Assembly: GCA_964016885.1 (NCBI GenBank)
Contig: OZ024745.1
Location: 46,562,001-46,626,000, forward strand
Direction of reading: 5' to 3'
DNA: 64,000 nucleotides
From: Eledone cirrhosa
Taxonomy: Eukaryota
The translations under genes were made by a program, and so were the position numbers. A model generated the notes under the pieces. That model was not told where the DNA came from and ran no database searches. It was given only the letters and a program-made list of their open reading frames with translations. The first letter of the stretch is position 1; each line of letters starts with the position of its first letter. Shown here in pieces: positions 17,548 through 49,990 of this stretch.

Positions 17548-18300
17548 ATATATATATGTGTGTGTGTGTGTGTGTCTGTTTATATATACATATATTTTTA
17601 TGTGTATATTTATATATATATGTATATATGTGTATATATATATATGTGTATATGTGTTTGTATATGAGTATATATGTGTGTATATGTATATATGTGTATA
17701 TATATAAGTATATATGTATATATATATATATGCGTGTGTGTGTGAATGTAGCGAAGATAATACGTCAGCAATGATGTGTTCGTGAGAATGTCGGTATGCC
17801 GACAGCCAGACATACAGACAGATATTATATGGGCTCGACGGAGATGACTGGCGCCTAACACCCCTTTAACAACAGAAAATTGAAAAATAAAAGCTGCAGT
17901 TATCTTTAGAATGCAAGTTTGAAGTCAATCAGAGTAGAAATGTGGATTTGTATAGACTTTGCAAAAATGAGGACACACAGACTACAGTTTTATATATATA
18001 AAACACATACTTGAATTTCTTAAAATTGAAACTAAACCCACAACAGCTAATCACATCCTAGTTGTAAATAGAAACCTAATGCCAACGGTCAGAATAAACA
18101 AATGAGACATGGAGATTTAATCTATGTTTTTGTGATACTTGCTAAAACTGACATTCAAACAAACAGATCCATGGTTTTTCAAGACCGAAGGATGCCAATA
18201 ATAATAACAATGATAATACTATATCAAGATTAAACCAGTATGAAACTAGTTAGACCATTTTTCAACAGTGTACTTGATACTTGGGATAGAAGAGTCTGAC

Positions 18301-18398
18301 TATATTAGAAAGAGTCAGGGCCCGACAGCTCTTGCCATCTCAACAGCTAGTCAAAATGGCAAGAGCTCAGCCATTGGGCCTCGACTCTTTCTAATATA
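18301..18398. repeat. ~98-bp imperfect hairpin (MITE-like)
   Basis: Outer arms TATATTAGAAAGAGTC/GACTCTTTCTAATATA (16 bp); inner arms AGCTCTTGCCAT/ATGGCAAGAGCT (12 bp). Confidence 0.75.
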
Positions 18399-18700
18399 TA
18401 CACACACATAATACATACACACACAAATATATATGCTTATATACAAATATAGGAATATATATGTGTGTGTGTGTGTGTAGATCCCGAGTGATATTGAGAA
18501 GAACCAGAGTAAATAAGATACTTAATACATTGGTAGAGTGAAAAGAACGAGATTTGATATAGAAATGGCTTCTACAGGACTAGAACTGTTTCATTCATAT
18601 GAAATTATCAGGAATGCCCTGACCATCTCATTGTATATATATATATATAGGGTGTGTAAAATTCCCGAAATTATATATATATATATATATATACACAAAT

Positions 18701-19377: not shown

Positions 19378-19752
19378 TCGTTTCTGAACTAAAAGCTTGT
19401 TGAGAAAGTGACTTCCTTGTTCGATCATCTTACCAAAAGCTTAACATCATTTGTCTAAGCAGACAGTACTTGATTTAGGAGTTGCAGAAACCCAAATGCT
19501 GGATTTTACCAACCATCCAGGGGTCCGGGTATAATTTTCAATCATATTTTATTTTTTTTACCCGAATTACTTGGTCGTTTCTATGGCTGTGCGGATAATG
19601 GTTTAACCATCGTCTCAGTGTGTTTGGCCTTTTAACTTATGTTGTAGCTCTGGTCTCTGGTTAACTAGCTTCTATGGAGTGCTTGCCACACATCTCGGAA
19701 GTTGTTTTTCGCTAATTTCCAATAGCCGAAATATGATTCTCGCTAATTTATA
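19378..19752 (-). mobile_element. Unclassified ~380-bp repeat flanked by (TA)n
   Basis: Homologous to 55835-56220(+) and 56352-56630(+); shared motifs TAAATTAGCGAGAATC, CAACTTCC, ACCCGGACCC, TTTGGGTTTCTG, TGATCGAACAAGG. Confidence 0.75.
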
Positions 19753-19754
19753 TT

Positions 19755-19798
<44 letters not shown>

Positions 19799-19871
19799 CA
19801 TACATATATATATATAGATATATTGTATATAAAATATATCTATATATACACACACACATATATATATATAT

Positions 19872-20060
19872 AATTGTTTCTACTTTTGGCACAAGGCCAG
19901 CAATTATCCAGTACATTACTGGTACTTTATTTTATCGGCCCCATAAGGATGAAAGGCAAAGTTAACCTTGATGGGATTTGAACTCAGACCATAAAGGGAC
20001 ATAACTATGCTACAAAGCATGGTGTCCAACCATCTACCGATACTGCCAATCCACCGCCCT
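19872..20060 (-). mobile_element. SINE family B
   Basis: Reverse complement of the 11361 copy; inserted in (TA)n. Confidence 0.85.
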
Positions 20061-20404
20061 AATATATATATATATAATGTAACATAATCTTAACACTGAT
20101 ATTAGTCAAACAATATTGCTTTTTTTGCTGTAATATTATATTAATCTGACTATTCATAATATTTGTTATGCTTCACTTGGCTCAAACAGAACTCATATAG
20201 TTTATAAAGTTATCAGCTGAAACACCTGTTGGCAAAGCAATTCTTGTTTTATACACATCTTACATATAATTATTAGCTTTTGGTTTCATGGCCACATGAC
20301 AATTTAGCCTGAATCCATAACTATAAAACTGAATGAATACATGCATATCTGCATATCTGAATTCATGTATATTCATGTATACATACCCAAACACACAGAT
20401 ATAT

Positions 20405-20456
<52 letters not shown>

Positions 20457-20461
<5 letters not shown>

Positions 20462-20567
20462 AACCAGTAAGACCCCGACAGCTGAGCTCAAGCCGTTTCG
20501 ACGGCTAATTCAGAATTAGCCGTCGAAACGGCTTGAGCTCAGCTGTCGGGGTCTTACTGGTTCCTAT
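20457..20567. repeat. Perfect palindrome, 55-bp arms, 1-nt centre; right arm carries the GAAA-stemIII-GUC half of a hammerhead
   Basis: Arms are exact reverse complements around A20512. GAAA at 20525-28; stem ACGGCT/AGCTGT; GTC at 20545-47. Confidence 0.9.
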
Positions 20568-20643
20568 TACCCACTCTACTACCCCAAGTATTGAGTACTT
20601 TGGTGCGTTATGGTCCACCTGGTTCCTTACCACATTTCCTTCG

Positions 20644-20700
<57 letters not shown>

Positions 20701-20851
20701 CATATATATATACGCATATATATGTACATATATATATATACATACATATATATATATATATACATACATATATATATACATATATATAAATACACATATA
20801 TATATAAACATTTATATATATATATATGCATACATATATATATGCATACGT

Positions 20852-20942
<91 letters not shown>

Positions 20943-20943
20943 G

Positions 20944-22074
20944 ATCATCATCATCATCATCATCAACGTTTAACGTCCGTGCTCCATGCTTGCATGGGTT
21001 TGGACGGGGGTTTTCCCACTTGAGGCAAGAGTGGTTGTCTTGCTCGCATAGGACTGTCTGGCGGGTTTTCTACAGCTGGATGCCCTTCCTAACACCAACC
21101 ACATTTACAGTGTGGGGCTGGGAGGTTTTTACCATGTTGCCTACACGGCCACATTACAGCGTGGACTGTCTGGCAGGTTTTCTACAGCTGGATGCCCTTC
21201 CTGACACCAACCACATTTACAGTGTGGGGCTGGGAGGTTTTTACCATGTTGCCTACACGGCCACATTACAGCGTGGACTGTGTGTTTTTTGTCGTGACAC
21301 CTACACGATCTCATTTGTTTCGGCCTGGATGTTGTGGCACCAACATAACTTTACATTGAAGGGGCGGTGTGGATGGGGTGGGTGGTGGTGGTGGGACGGG
21401 GGTGTATTTTGTTAGAGATGCCTACTGGCTGTAGTAGGTTTTACTTTGTATTTAGGTAAGGCGGGTCTTCTCTATTACTGAGTACCGCCAAAGGTCTCGG
21501 TCCAGTGACATTGTCTTGGAGAGGTGTAAGTGTGTGAGGTCGGAATTTATCAGCTCGTCCCAGATTTTTCTGGGTCTGCCTACTCCGTAGCTACTGTCTA
21601 TCTTTATTGCCCTGCACTTTGTTATACAGTTGTCGTCTTTCATGCGCATCACGTGACTATACCAACGTAGCCTTCTCTCGAGTAAACAACATCTCATCCC
21701 TCTTATTTCTAATTTTTTCCTTAGTTCGCTTATGCTTTGCCGTTCACGTATGTTACTATTACACATCCAGCGGAGCATGCAAGCTTCGTTCCTCTCCAGT
21801 CTGCGTATATCCTCTGCACGCAATGTCCAGGTCTTACTGCCATGTAACATTGCTGTTCGTATGCAGGCATCATACAACCTGCCTTTCATTTTTAGGGAGA
21901 ACCCTTTAGCGGCTAATAGTGGTATAAGCTCTCTGAACTTTTTCCAACCAGTTCTGACTCTAGCTACTGTACTTTCAGAGCACCCTCCCCCACTGCTGAT
22001 TTTGTCGTCCAGGTAACGGAAGCTGTCCACTATTTCTATAGAACCCTCTGCGCAATTGAAAGAGCTAGTATTTT
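20944..22074 (-). mobile_element. RTE LINE 3' portion, left member of an inverted pair, with a 112-bp tandem duplication in the 3'UTR
   Basis: ORF 21452-22030 (SFRYL..., ERRLRWYSHVMR, GVGRPRK); GGACTG anchors at 21051, 21163 and 21275. Confidence 0.92.
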
Positions 22075-22124
22075 ATAGATATATATACATATATATATAT
22101 ACATATATATATATACATATATAT

Positions 22125-22161
<37 letters not shown>

Positions 22162-22163
<2 letters not shown>

Positions 22164-23387
22164 AGTTCTAGTTTGTAAGAAAGAAAATAAGGCGGCAGCC
22201 CCTTCCGGGAAGTGGCCATGCTCAGTGTGTAGGAAAGGCGTAGGTAGAAACTCCATTTTGTGTCCCAAATGCAAAGTATGGGTGCATAAAAGATGTAGTG
22301 GGATCACAGGTAAGCTAACTAAGAACATAGATTTTACATGTGGCCGGTGCTCTGGTGCAATAAGTAGCAGCAAGTTCCCACAAAATACTAGCTCTTTCAA
22401 CTGCGCAGAGTGTCCTATAGAAATAGTGGACAGCTTCCGTTACCTGGGTGACAAAATCAGCAGTGGGGGAGGGTGCTCTGAAAGTACAGTAGCTAGAGTC
22501 AGAACTGGATGGAAAAAGTTCAGAGAGCTTATACCACTATTAGCCGCTAAAGGGTTCTCCCTAAAAATGAAAGGCAAGTTGTATGATGCCTGCATACGAA
22601 CAGCAATGTTACATGGCAGTAAGACCTGGACATTGTGTGCAGAGGATATACGCAGACTAGAGAGGAACGAAGCTTGCATGCTCCGCTGGATGTGTAATAG
22701 AAACATACGTGAACGGCAAAGCATAAACGAACTAAGGAAAAAATTAGAAATAAGAGGGATCAGATGTTGTTTACTCGAGAGAAGGCTACGTTGGTATGGT
22801 CACGTGATGCGCATGAAAGACGATAGCTGCATAACAAAGTGCAGGGCAATAAAGATAGACGGTAGCCACGGAGTAGGCAGACCCAGAAAAACCTGGGACG
22901 AGCTGATAAATTCCGACCTCACACACTTACACCTCTCCAAGACAATGTCACTGGACCGAGACCTTTGGCAGTACTCAGTAATAGAGAAGACCCGCCTTAC
23001 CTAAATACAAAGTAAAACCTACTACAGTCAATAGGCATCTCTAACAAAATACACCCCCGTCCCACCACCCCCACCCCATCCACACCGCCCCTTTCAATGT
23101 AAAGTTATGTTGGTGCCACAACATCCAGGCCGAAACAAATGAGATCGTGTAGGTGTCGCGACAAAAAAACACACAGTCCACGCTGTAATGTGGCCGTGTA
23201 GGTAACACGGTAAAAACCTCCCAGTCCACACTGTAAACGTGGTTGGTGTTAGGAAGGGCATCCAGCCGTAGAAAACCCTTCAGACAGTCCTATACGAGCA
23301 AGACAACCAATCTTGCCTCAAGTGGAAAAATTCCCGTCCAAACCCATGCTAGCGTGGAAGATGGACATTAAACGATGATGATGATGA

Positions 23388-23390
<3 letters not shown>
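22162..23390 (+). mobile_element. RTE LINE 3' portion, right member, including C4HC3 PHD-like finger; (TGA)n tail
   Basis: ORF 22225-23004: CSVC..CPKC.VWVHKRC..CGRC, then SFRYLGD, LHGSKTW, RRLRWYGHVMR, GRPRKTW. Confidence 0.93.
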
Positions 23391-23424
<34 letters not shown>

Positions 23425-23470
23425 CATATATATATATAACCATATATATATATATATATATACACATATC

Positions 23471-23536
<66 letters not shown>

Positions 23537-23660
23537 CATATGTAGGAGGTGAGTTTTATTGTAGTACAATAAAGCAATGCAGATATCGGATAAGAAGCAC
23601 TCTACAGTTTGTAGGACTGGAGTATACATAATATATAAGATCAAAAGATGGTTAAAAGAG

Positions 23661-23742
23661 TTCCATGTATTTTATTATGCGCATTTCAAAAACAAATATC
23701 ATCATGCAATAACATTTGTGTTTTCATCAGATAAAATAGGAA
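23661..23742 (-). ncRNA. Type I hammerhead ribozyme motif (left arm; fully palindromic stem III ATGCGCAT)
   Basis: Minus strand reads TTCC-TATTTTAT-CTGATGA-[36-nt stem II hairpin]-GAAA-TGCGCA-TA^-ATAAAATA-CAT-GGAA. Confidence 0.85.
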
Positions 23743-23860
23743 GACATGATATGAAGGTTAAAAAACACTTGTGAATAGTGCAGTTTTAAATCAACATATC
23801 ATGATATGTTGATTTAAAACTGCACTATTCACAAGTGTTTTTTAACCTTCATATCATGTC

Positions 23861-23942
23861 TTCCTATTTTATCTGATGAAAACACAAATGTTATTGCATG
23901 ATGATATTTGTTTTTGAAATGTGCATAATAAAATACATGGAA
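23861..23942 (+). ncRNA. Type I hammerhead ribozyme motif (right arm)
   Basis: Stem I TATTTTAT (23865-72)/ATAAAATA (23928-35), extended by TTCC/GGAA past a CAT bulge; CTGATGA 23873-79; stem II 23880-915; GAAA 23916-19; stem III ATGTGCAT; predicted cleavage after A23927. Confidence 0.85.
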
Positions 23943-23983
23943 CTCTTTTAACCATCTTTTGATCTTATATATTAGATATATAC

Positions 23984-24044
<61 letters not shown>

Positions 24045-24052
24045 CATATATA

Positions 24053-24093
<41 letters not shown>

Positions 24094-24110
24094 ATATACA
24101 TACATATATA

Positions 24111-24172
<62 letters not shown>

Positions 24173-24195
24173 CCTATATATATATTTATATATAT

Positions 24196-24226
<31 letters not shown>

Positions 24227-24241
24227 CATACATATATATAC

Positions 24242-24274
<33 letters not shown>

Positions 24275-24287
24275 CATATATATATAT

Positions 24288-24612
24288 GGAGGCACATGGC
24301 TTAGTGGCCTTGCAATCGAAAGGTTGTGAGTTCAATTCTCAGACCGGGTGACGTGTTGTTTCCTTGAGCAAGACACTTTATTTCACATTGCTCCAGTTTA
24401 CTCAGCTGTAGAAATGAGATGATAGGGACTTGGGTCCCTATCATTCCACTGCAAAGTGATCGTGCTGGTGCCATGGCAAAAAGCACCCAGCACTCACTGT
24501 AAATGAGGTTGGTGCTAGGAAGGGCATCCAGCTGTAGAAATCAAGCCAGAATCAGTTCCTGTCCCACCCTTGCAAGCAGGGAAAAGCGGACGTAAAATGA
24601 AAATGAAAATGA
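24288..24612 (+). mobile_element. SINE family A (tRNA head, Nin/Deu-like core, RTE-derived tail)
   Basis: Near-identical to 37502, 44097, 54613(-) and 56631; small deletion in the head; tail (AAAATG)n. Confidence 0.9.
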
Positions 24613-37842: not shown

Positions 37843-37858
37843 ATATATATATATATAG

Positions 37859-38290
37859 CAGTAAGGAGGACACCAAGCTGTGAAAACAATTGCCTCCTTA
37901 TTAAAAAGAGAAAATGAATAAGCATCTTACTTATGTTGACATGAAAATATGAATGTAAAATATTTAAAGAACCCTACTTAGTTTCTATTCCACTGTGGGA
38001 CATCAATAGAAAGAAACTGGGAGTAAGCCTGTTATATTTACATATATATACATGCACACACACATACACCCACATTATATATAATGTGTGTGTGCATGTA
38101 TATATATGTAAATATAACAGGCTTACTCCCAGTTTCTTTCTATTGATGTCCCACAGTGGGATAGAAACTAAGTAGGGTTCTTTAAATATTTTACATTCAT
38201 ATTTTCATGTCAACATAAGTAAGATGCTTATTCATTTTCTCTTTTTAATAAGGAGGCAATTGTTTTCACAGCTTGGTGTCCTCCTTACTG
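37859..38290. repeat. Long inverted repeat, 207-bp arms, 18-nt loop
   Basis: 37859-38065 is the reverse complement of 38084-38290 with one mismatch seen (37989/38160); the left arm starts just after a (TA)n tract. Confidence 0.93.
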
Positions 38291-38797
38291 TTAACCACTC
38301 AACCATAAAATGAAACACATTGTCAGGTTAGCAAGCAGATACAAAGAAATAGAATTATCCTTTCTTAGGTGTTTCAACATAAGTTATATCAAATGTTTAA
38401 TTAAAGGCCGTATTGTCAGTAGCCCCCTCCCTTAACTCTTAACATCCTTTAATGATTTAATCAGAAAATATCTAAAAATGGGTTTGTTAATTCAAATGGT
38501 TAGAATTTCTTTACTATTGGACAGATCATTGTAAATATTTGCCACTGTAGAATAAGGACTTTAATGTTTCATGTGATACAGTCATAGAGCAATCTTATAC
38601 TATTCAAGTATGTCTTGCTAGTGCAGTTTCATGTTTTTTTTTTGTTTTGTTTTTTATCCATTTCCTTTTTATTCGATGTTGTAAAATAAAATTACAGACA
38701 ATAAATCAATTTACAGCTGTATAAATAACATTACAAATATTAATGGAAATATGAAAGAAAAAGAGAAAAAAAGGATAAAAACAAAACCAAGCAACAT

Positions 38798-47589: not shown

Positions 47590-47855
47590 ATCCCTGTGTG
47601 AATCATGTGTGTCCGGGACACATTTGATAGTGTTATCAAATCCAGCCCCACAGAGTGAAGCATTATAGTGGTCTGTGTGTTCTTTAAAAGTGTTATGGGT
47701 CTTTGAAAGTCTGGAGATCTTTAGAGATATACCTTTCACAATACAGTTAATAATGTATTTGTGTAATTCTGGTAATCGATAGATTTATGAATAGTAGCAA
47801 TATCTAAGAGTTATTCTTTAGGCTGTTGATAAAATTTACCAGATATACTAACAGG
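47590..47855 (-). pseudogene. Penelope-like element RT C-terminal (thumb-region) remnant
   Basis: IVKGISLKISRLSKTHNTFKEHTDHYNASLCGAGF resembles the PLE pattern I..RL..LS....F......Y...L...GY. Confidence 0.55.
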
Positions 47856-48639: not shown

Positions 48640-49990
48640 AGATATTCCTATATTTTTTGTTCTATCTTGTGCTTATTTTGGAGTCGGGATGTAAACCCTG
48701 GATGTCCTTGCAGGATAAAAGATGAATGCCATCTGCAACAAAAATGTAATTCCAGGTTGAACATGTATGAAGCTACCATTACTCCAGTTACAACCAACTA
48801 TACATTGAGCAGAAAAGGATATGTGGGTATGACACACAACTGGTTTAAACAATTGACACAGATTGTGTCTTTCAAACACCAAGATATGAAGATGACTATG
48901 GCACTGGTAAATTGAGTATGGAAACTGAAGGATAAAGGGGTACCATGCACGATTAAATGGAACATCCTTGATAAATCATTGTTCTAATATTAAAGGAACA
49001 ATGAGGTGTTCACTTTGCCTAAATGAAAAATTAAGGATATTACAGCATCTGAAATCATCTGATAAATACCTAAACACAAAACATGAGCAATTTAGAGGAT
49101 GCCCACACATAAGATCACATATCCTTTCAGCATGGCAGCATATAAGCTCAGAGACACAAAACACAACTATCTTACACTCAGCTTAGTTCACTAAATCGGT
49201 CTCTGTATCCAAACATGATTAAATACAATCAGCTACATAACTAATGTACATGTAAATAACAAATATATCTTTATCAAAACACATATAAGACTCCACCTTA
49301 ATATAAGTTAAATACAACAACCTTATAAATAATATACACATACAAGTACATTGCATATACATACTTAACAACATACTTAACACACTTTCACTACAATAAT
49401 CCATATAATTATACATAGAAAAAACAAAAACACACATACATACACACAATACAGATACTTTAACAATTACATTAAAATATATAAACTTACAGGCACAGGA
49501 GCTACTCACCCTGAATAACAAAACACCAAATTTTTTGTTACATTATTATTACCTCCCTTGCACTTGAAGAAATCTCATGTATGAATTAATATCGGCCATC
49601 TTGGTATTGCCTGAAAGATAAGCAACACTAGCATATACAATGTCTCTATGACCTATGCTAAAGTAGGTTTTGAAACCTGAGACAGCATAAAACTCGGTTG
49701 ACAAATTATTTATATTTTAGCTCTGTACTTAACATGGAGCACTCTATTTCCTTTATCTAATCTACAGAAACTCTTGACACTACACTTTCAAATAACATCA
49801 AAGCCGGTCTGTCTCCCTATCAATATGCTGTAGTGTCTTAGAAACAGATTACATTATTAAGAGGCTGACTGAAGACGTTATGCCAGGAATTGTGTTATAG
49901 CATCATGACATAATGGCATCACAGAAGTGTGTATTACGATTAATTATGTAATAACAGAAATTATGTAATCTAGTCGTCGCATCTTATTAT
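48640..49990 (+). mobile_element. Penelope-like element 3' part: Cys-preceded GIY-YIG endonuclease remnant plus 3' region ending in (TA)n
   Basis: CPCRIKDECHLQQKC...MYEATI...GYVGMT...FK...SFKH...WKLKDKG...IKW...RCSLCLNEKLRI...YLN...CPH, across frameshifts. Confidence 0.8.
49863..49975 (+). ncRNA. Hammerhead-like motif with expanded stem II at the PLE 3' end
   Basis: GGCT(G)A-CTGAAGA (49869-75)-81-nt stem II closed by GTTAT/ATAAC-GAAA (49957-60)-near-palindromic ATTATGTAAT-C^-TAGTC. Confidence 0.55.

Follow-up and report, generated by a model that had tools for sequence, protein, structure and literature searches.

How does a short, perfect palindrome that carries half of a hammerhead ribozyme come to lie between two TA tracts? 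The question is raised by positions 20457 to 20645 of a 64,000-nucleotide stretch of the Eledone cirrhosa genome (assembly GCA_964016885.1, contig OZ024745.1, positions 46,562,001 to 46,626,000), referred to here as the window. An earlier note, made from the letters of the window, had proposed that reverse transcription or repair folded back at the ribozyme's own stem II hairpin. Our analysis favors a different origin. The palindrome probably arose when two 5'-truncated copies of a Hydra-type Penelope-like element (PLE) were inserted head to head into a (TA)n target, and its centre likely corresponds to the point where the element's RNA begins and not to a fold-back hairpin. The genome thus likely records where the RNAs of this element begin and where they are cut.

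Positions are numbered on the intact parent element, +1 being the first base past the predicted ribozyme cut and corresponding to window position 20548; in the window copy the predicted cut falls between 20547 and 20548. The parts of the locus are as follows.

20399 to 20459, no strand: left (TA)n target tract, whose last TAT (20457-20459) is common with positions +18 to +20 of the element.
20457 to 20511, minus strand: short (tail-less) arm, parent positions -35 to +20, 100% identical to parent copy L081.
20511 to 20513, no strand: head-to-head junction, one base (20511) being shared by the arms.
20511 to 20645, plus strand: long (tailed) arm, parent positions -37 to +98, 99.3% identical to parent copy L081.
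20519 to 20552, plus strand: hammerhead 3' half, read from the sequence and the parent fold, with the stem II 3' strand, GAAA, stem III with a palindromic loop, GTC and the stem I 3' strand.
20568 to 20645, plus strand: 78-nt tail between the fixed ends +20 and +98, delimited by arm comparison and exact-match ends.
20645 to 20942, no strand: right (TA)n target tract, read from the sequence.

The inverted repeat spans 20457-20567 and consists of perfect 55-bp arms around an unpaired A20512. Folded as one strand it is far more stable than expected (z = -23.4), and none of 200 shuffles is equally stable. The right arm is the 3' half of a real hammerhead, as the earlier note had recognized, with GCCGTC at 20519-20524, GAAA at 20525-20528, a TGAGCTC loop, GTC at 20545-20547 and GGGGT at 20548-20552. 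The 5' core half, expected there as CTGANGA, is missing and its place is taken by the mirror image, so that the copy does not hold both core halves. The position of the element between two (TA)n tracts was likewise described correctly, and the extension of one arm, put at about 77 nt, measures 78 nt. Searching 19500-24500 against Rfam returned no hammerhead match and, at the palindrome, only sub-threshold matches to microRNA hairpins.

A 31-nt probe for the ribozyme half finds 10,134 matches in the 3.0-Gb genome, many of them paired on opposite strands at distances of 13-35 nt. Non-palindromic copies run upstream into constant sequence, which has 2,098 matches and recurs at a 3,543-bp period. 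The parent unit is 3,543 bp long, is arranged in tandem and contains an intact open reading frame (ORF) for a 719-amino acid reverse transcriptase (RT)-endonuclease. Its motifs are RWR at residue 37, DKT at 117, YRDDG at 348, CNCPDRSIC (CxCX5C) at 572, VIY..YIG at 591, CNLC (CxxC) at 670 and CKH (CxH) at 698; the GIY-YIG domain holds a single cysteine and CCHH is absent. The signatures of the Hydra clade are RW(K/R), DKT, a CxCX5C linker, CxxC, CxH and the lack of CCHH in the GIY-YIG core (PMC8557442). Pfam and PDB sequence searches of the 719-residue ORF gave no match, and its atlas neighbors carry HTH_animal, GIY-YIG and RVT_1 domains. Judged by its sequence, the parent is a Hydra-type PLE, having a single ORF of RT and C-terminal GIY-YIG, the motifs of the clade and a (TA)n target. 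The family also has the (TA)n insertion, partial tandem arrangement, inverted 5' copy and tail of Hydra elements, and it resembles the published Hydra supplement alignments by eye. A retroelement origin of the palindrome, implied by the earlier note, is thereby borne out: the intact relatives are copies of a coding PLE. We considered and rejected a non-LTR (long terminal repeat) retrozyme, the monomer being 3,543 bp and coding while the palindromic stub carries half a ribozyme. About 65 direct repeats of one 55-bp segment of the parent unit lie where a 5.5-unit tandem array inverts (L082:6770-9900 and L083:1-441), and locus L154 has a smaller stutter of this kind in which a 12-mer occurs five times. 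These stutters suggest repeated slippage during joining.

The hammerhead of the parent is complete. It has an ACCCC/GGGGT stem I, the 5' core TTGAGAA and a long stem II with an extension of about 47 nt (47-nt loop II), and the parent ATG lies about 190 nt downstream of the cut. Both the minimum free energy and the centroid fold of the parent form stems I to III and leave TTGAGAA, GAA and C unpaired, with ordinary stability (z = -0.36). Intact relatives therefore possess the predicted stem I strand complementary to GGGGT, namely ACCCC. They had also been expected to read CTGANGA followed by GACGGC, and here they depart from expectation, reading TTGANAA followed by G(A/C/T)TCGGCTA. By hand count of the first 100 of 5,128 matches, the core 3-8 pair is U3-A8 in 75, C3/A8 in 23, U3/G8 in two and C3-G8 in none; N7 varies, as expected for a hammerhead. 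The placement of the palindrome centre at stem II is right in that the centre falls inside the extended stem II/loop II region. The central hairpin itself is the mirror image of the right arm and not parent sequence, the native stem II partner lying about 35 nt upstream of the palindrome centre in the parent. Among the subfamilies, a C3/A8 mismatch group (e.g. L107, L263, L264 and L274) is multicopy despite a ribozyme predicted to be impaired, and core type is not tightly linked to downstream markers. A different hammerhead-like end, with GAGA for GAAA and the same +20-type TA junction, occurs at L015/L246 next to G000:C1:7217897 as a single exact match.

The outer ends of the palindromes are fixed. 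The +98 end followed by TA has 20,512 exact matches in the genome, and the +20 end followed by TA has 7,065 with a young-subfamily probe. Of 99 palindromes, 89 combine one +98-ended (long) arm with one +20-ended (short) arm. Arms of 1.7-5 kb can likewise begin at the +20 end (L031, L084, L140), and because these kilobase arms hold sequence missing from the +98 arm, we regard +20 as the site where synthesis starts rather than where copying back stops. Subfamily variants are common to both arms in 92 of 99 pairs (65 are discordant after shuffling) and the arms therefore stem from one RNA or from sibling RNAs. Similar sequence lies behind both fixed ends (window 20568-20610 and L081:4078-4120, minus strand); a hairpin fold there is supported only at the second end, +98 (z = -2.07, versus z = -0.35 at the other).

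The centres, in contrast to these fixed ends, are varied and arose independently. The window-type palindrome pattern has 9,027 exact matches in the genome, and 99 pairs contain 61 different centres, one of which recurs 15 times. The 144 arm ends of 72 scored pairs accumulate at a wall located at -41 to -45: 107 fall at -46 to -34, 18 at -33 to -1, nine at +1 or +2, six further 3' and only four beyond -46. Inspection by eye of the first 50 of the 9,027 palindromes showed no arm, out of 100, that extends beyond -45, although the pattern had room for 30 nt. In the contigs of two public runs, depth falls across -42 to -45 by factors of about 9 and 14, with a peak of loose ends at -45 in one of them; public runs X5 and X6, with three contigs each, were left out. 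The arms are unequal in both directions. The short arm reaches further in 30 of the 72 pairs (by at least 10 nt in 13), the long arm in 28, and 14 pairs are equal. Their joins are blunt in 15 pairs, share 1-2 bases in 25, have a longer overlap in 11 and contain an insert in 21. At L043:435-1596, an arm runs from +98 to -40, continues after a 3-nt insert by re-entry at about +918, proceeds to -38 and joins a short arm, which represents run-off followed by a template jump. The arms of the window copy end 4-6 nt short of parent A(-41), and this copy is a trimmed member of the class with a one-base overlap.

Many arms at the wall carry a letter that their template does not readily supply. A(-41) is the end of 6,412 arms, and the letter preceding it is G in 48, C in 44 and A in eight of the first 100 (hand count). 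An older subfamily that has C at -42 (eight intact copies) and its 4-nt microhomology join account for many of the C's. We examined 88 A(-41) arms, of which 41 have the G, and in 27 of these the partner arm is not the source of the G; in L170, L228 and L245 both arms carry it. The commonest join (17 of 88) uses the 4-nt microhomology, with the loop-bearing arm being the short one in nine cases and the long one in eight. Among letters not explained by the partner arm, G makes up 27 of 44 at -41 versus 15 of 44 at neighboring end positions (Fisher p = 0.018, post hoc), and at loci not selected on -41 the unexplained G's are 7 of 9 versus 12 of 34. Copies joined straight to TA behave similarly, non-T letters being G in 10 of 20 cases at -41 and in 1 of 11 at -40 (hand count). 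At the 5' junctions of full-length L1 copies, an extra G is known as a relic of the cap (PMC11702581).

A(-41) lies within T(T/C)AGT(C/A), and all subfamilies seen have a TATT-initial box 29-31 nt upstream of it, while the intervening sequence varies. We take this motif to resemble the initiator consensus and the box to resemble the TATA consensus, at a spacing that is presumably near the usual ~30 nt. Taken together, motif and scars suggest that a capped RNA likely starts at A(-41), less often at -45, from a core promoter inside loop II. Neither the apical loop of the extended stem II, which the wall also touches, nor the likeness of AG at -41/-40 to a splice acceptor explains the extra G.

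A second class of joins lies at the ribozyme cut. With a pattern that allowed 8 nt at the centre, 124 palindromes are centred on the predicted cut site. By hand count of the first 50, both arms start at +1 in 44, three have one G and three extend into the parent. The 44 joins comprise 21 with no insert, 13 with one A or T and 10 with a short foreign insert. Additions of A or T at +1 versus G at -41 differ in the way expected of an uncapped and a capped end. These joins are indirect evidence that the U3-A8 ribozyme may cut in vivo.

The following sequence of events would account for the palindromes. The endonuclease would cut both strands of the TA tract, and each target 3' end would prime cDNA at one internal start, +98 or +20. 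Most cDNAs would run off a capped RNA starting at A(-41) or, less often, at -45, and the two cDNA ends would then be trimmed by a few bases and joined bluntly, through 1-2 nt of microhomology or with a short insert. Where the template was the 3' product of ribozyme cleavage, the join would form at +1, and longer copies would reflect RT passing -41. As a route past -41, seamless transfer, a circle or an uncleaved read-through RNA would leave no scar. An unannealed jump from the RNA 5' end to the cut 3' end, which would duplicate -41 to -1, finds no support: the genome contains eight matches, of which one or two end at the cut site.

Several other origins have to be weighed. One is that a single +98 cDNA reached the RNA 5' end, snapped back, copied itself and was captured at the TAT of +18 to +20, with later deletions making the arms unequal. 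Such junctions are described for R2 proteins after full-length cDNA synthesis (PMC11371274), the sharing of variants between arms fits equally well, the commonest join corresponds to a 4-bp stem with a 6-nt loop in the C(-42) subfamily, and the long arm does reach further in 28 of 72 pairs. Yet in the 30 pairs with a further-reaching short arm this arm ends cleanly at -41 with G, the loop lies on the short arm in 9 of 17 of the commonest joins, centres of 0-1 nt cannot self-prime and +20-ended arms of several kilobases carry sequence without a match in the partner; we consider this origin unlikely. The proposal of the earlier note, in which fold-back occurs at the stem II hairpin, or RT stops at that structure or at an apical-loop cut, and no RNA ends at -41, draws on the position of the wall, which at -45/-46 touches the TTTC apical loop predicted for the extended stem II. 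It appears distinctly improbable, in that the hairpin at the centre does not come from parent sequence, neither the loop nor its 5' strand survives in any arm, and the AU-rich apical stem is not preserved in older subfamilies, unlike T(T/C)AGT; moreover, arms end most often at -41, inside the 3' strand, and have the extra G there, while joins at the uncapped cut site carry A or T. Hairpin-primed fold-back fails as a general mechanism because the tail-less arm so often holds sequence without a counterpart in the tailed arm, because the centres keep no native loop and because many joins have 0-1 nt between the arms and hence no priming stem. Self-priming may nevertheless account for single copies, although the window copy would need to prime from a 1-bp stem.

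The wall could alternatively be a 3' splice acceptor (TTTAG or CCAG at -40/-35), the extra G deriving from an upstream exon or leader. A pyrimidine-rich run followed by AG at -41/-40 and the Drosophila virilis intron that ends at a hammerhead (PMC4209133) speak for it, but the 41 arms of the G class have no common sequence upstream of the G and some arms run on to -45 in genomic sequence, making this explanation highly improbable. Least credible of all is a fixed palindromic unit, either similar to a miniature inverted-repeat transposable element (MITE) or a non-autonomous retroelement, or else an assembly artefact. High copy number, short length, TA flanks and the single recurrent centre would suit a fixed unit, which is largely refuted by the diversity of centres, by the pairing of a long with a short arm in 89 of 99 cases and by a sequence that is the pseudo-LTR (pLTR) of a coding PLE; the same observations bear out the prior expectation that the locus is not simply a MITE bounded by terminal inverted repeats. 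An artefact is countered by the +1 join with A, which also occurs in public-run contigs, possibly from the same sample as the assembly.

A number of points weigh against a double insertion ending at an RNA 5' end. Start site, cap and cleavage would be read from DNA scars only, and the TATA-like box is degenerate (TATTTAA, TATTCAT, TATTTAT). G also occurs elsewhere (4 of 5 at -36 and 4 of 10 at -35), the G test was picked after the pattern had been seen, and the wall falls at the border of the apical loop predicted for the extended stem II. The 92 variant-sharing pairs fit one template or fold-back as well as sibling RNAs, and centres that lost bases after insertion could give the appearance of unequal arms. 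Cleavage may be dispensable because 23 of the first 100 intact cores are C3/A8 and yet multicopy, and 21 of the 50 cut-site joins, those with no insert, could be CG microhomology at -1/+1, an explanation that the other joins do not admit. Sampling also counts here: the loci come from the first 70 Mb of contig C1, exact-match anchors favor young copies, loci from the 31-nt probe favor arms reaching -30, and of 95 arms anchored on the +20 end the 72 with a scorable +98 partner were scored and 23 dropped. In addition, transcription of Penelope in D. virilis starts upstream of an intron ending at helix I and not inside the ribozyme (PMC2377424, PMC4209133).

Further repeats are present in the window. 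At 18238-18400 on the minus strand, an old diverged relative (~70%) of the same element end, apparently inverted and short, adjoins a TA tract, and degenerate fragments resembling the parent protein are found on opposite strands at 47614-47784 and 48703-48978 (tblastn 42% and 27%). The region 21380-23076 is an inverted repeat of 695 bp (97% complementary, 307-nt spacer) made up of the 3' end of a LINE-like RT. Two near-perfect palindromes beside TA tracts, one at 37856-38293 with 210-bp arms (99%) and one at about 23635-23970 centred near 23801, are unrelated in sequence to the hammerhead element.

If joins of the two classes are read as RNA ends, the thousands of independent joins locate two RNA 5' ends to the base, in the manner of fossils: one is probably a capped start in loop II and the other the U3-A8 cut site. 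A broader reading, which we offer tentatively and regard as possible but doubtful, is that the RNA of the element starts inside its own ribozyme and that the mini-palindromes are paired strong-stop cDNAs that failed transfer. The RNA 5' end would then contain half a hammerhead and would not cut itself, whereas read-through at the far end would form the whole ribozyme and cut, yielding a unit-length RNA with a 41-nt terminal repeat. Reverse transcription from +98 or +20 would begin with a strong-stop cDNA of the retroviral kind, and the rest would be copied only after transfer through the repeat or from RNA closed at the cut site. If true, this would give PLE hammerheads a defined job and tie PLE replication to LTR-type strand transfer. 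The origin of inverted, tailed PLE insertions and hammerhead cutting in vivo are stated as open questions (PMC8557442), and PMC11167929 found no reads at the cut site.

The inverted layout with a one-sided tail, (TA)n targeting, opposite-strand hammerhead pairs, the U3-A8 core and the clade itself are already known (PMC8557442, PMC4209133). The new part, as far as it can be read from genomic sequence, would be the RNA-end map from inversion joints. Literature searches, with older subscription papers outside their scope, found no report of PLE inversion joints mapping to a loop II start or a cut site, nothing joining Penelope, strong-stop, retrotransposon and template switch, and nothing relevant on PLEs and twin priming.

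Comparison with the Hydra clade as described in parts of PMC8557442 shows the same motifs, (TA)n target, pLTR hammerhead, partial tandems, inverted 5'-truncated copy and tail at one end. The present family is longer (3,543 bp versus generally <3 kb) and has a U3-A8 core with a 47-nt loop II in place of the canonical core, both being general and not diagnostic traits of the clade, and its tail is 78 nt instead of 30-40 nt. It differs from Hydra-1_Obim, whose hammerhead has a CTGAAGA core and an 8-nt loop 2, and exact probes from the family have no match in the portion of the PMC8557442 supplement searched. Similar to other PLE hammerheads (PMC4209133), the ribozyme is of type I, lies in the pLTR and has a long stem II with a bulge and a palindromic loop III. 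The U3-A8 covariant core also occurs in the Schistosoma PLE Cercyon, and PLE hammerhead pairs on opposite strands are reported 100-700 bp apart (PMC4209133). The excerpts of that paper considered here contain no inversion-joint mapping, loop II start site or in vivo cleavage evidence among PLE hammerheads.

The proposed mechanism also has counterparts in other systems. In the PAc/Poseidon in vitro system (PMC11167929), the purified protein likewise cuts and extends both target strands, uses an AT-rich target and has two internal RT starts that bound the tail. In PAc, however, uncleaved RNA was found to be the main substrate and no reads ended at the cut site (PMC11167929), whereas 124 genomic joins lie there in the present family; the PAc ORF starts in stem II, whereas here the ATG lies well past the cut and the RNA probably starts in loop II. 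The snap-back of R2 (PMC11371274) similarly produces an inverted copy once the cDNA reaches the template 5' end, but nests the second arm within the first, which fails here in 30 of 72 pairs. In D. virilis, Penelope has its start site and an initiator-type internal promoter in the pLTR as well; that promoter is TATA-less and upstream of the ribozyme (PMC2377424), whereas the TATA-like and initiator-like motifs of the present family would lie inside loop II. L1 twin priming (PMC11702581) shares two cDNAs from two target ends, end-joining and an additional G where a 5' end is capped. The two arms of an L1 insertion derive from neighboring stretches of the RNA with almost no overlap, whereas both arms here usually copy the same 55-65 nt, from fixed starts to the RNA 5' end.
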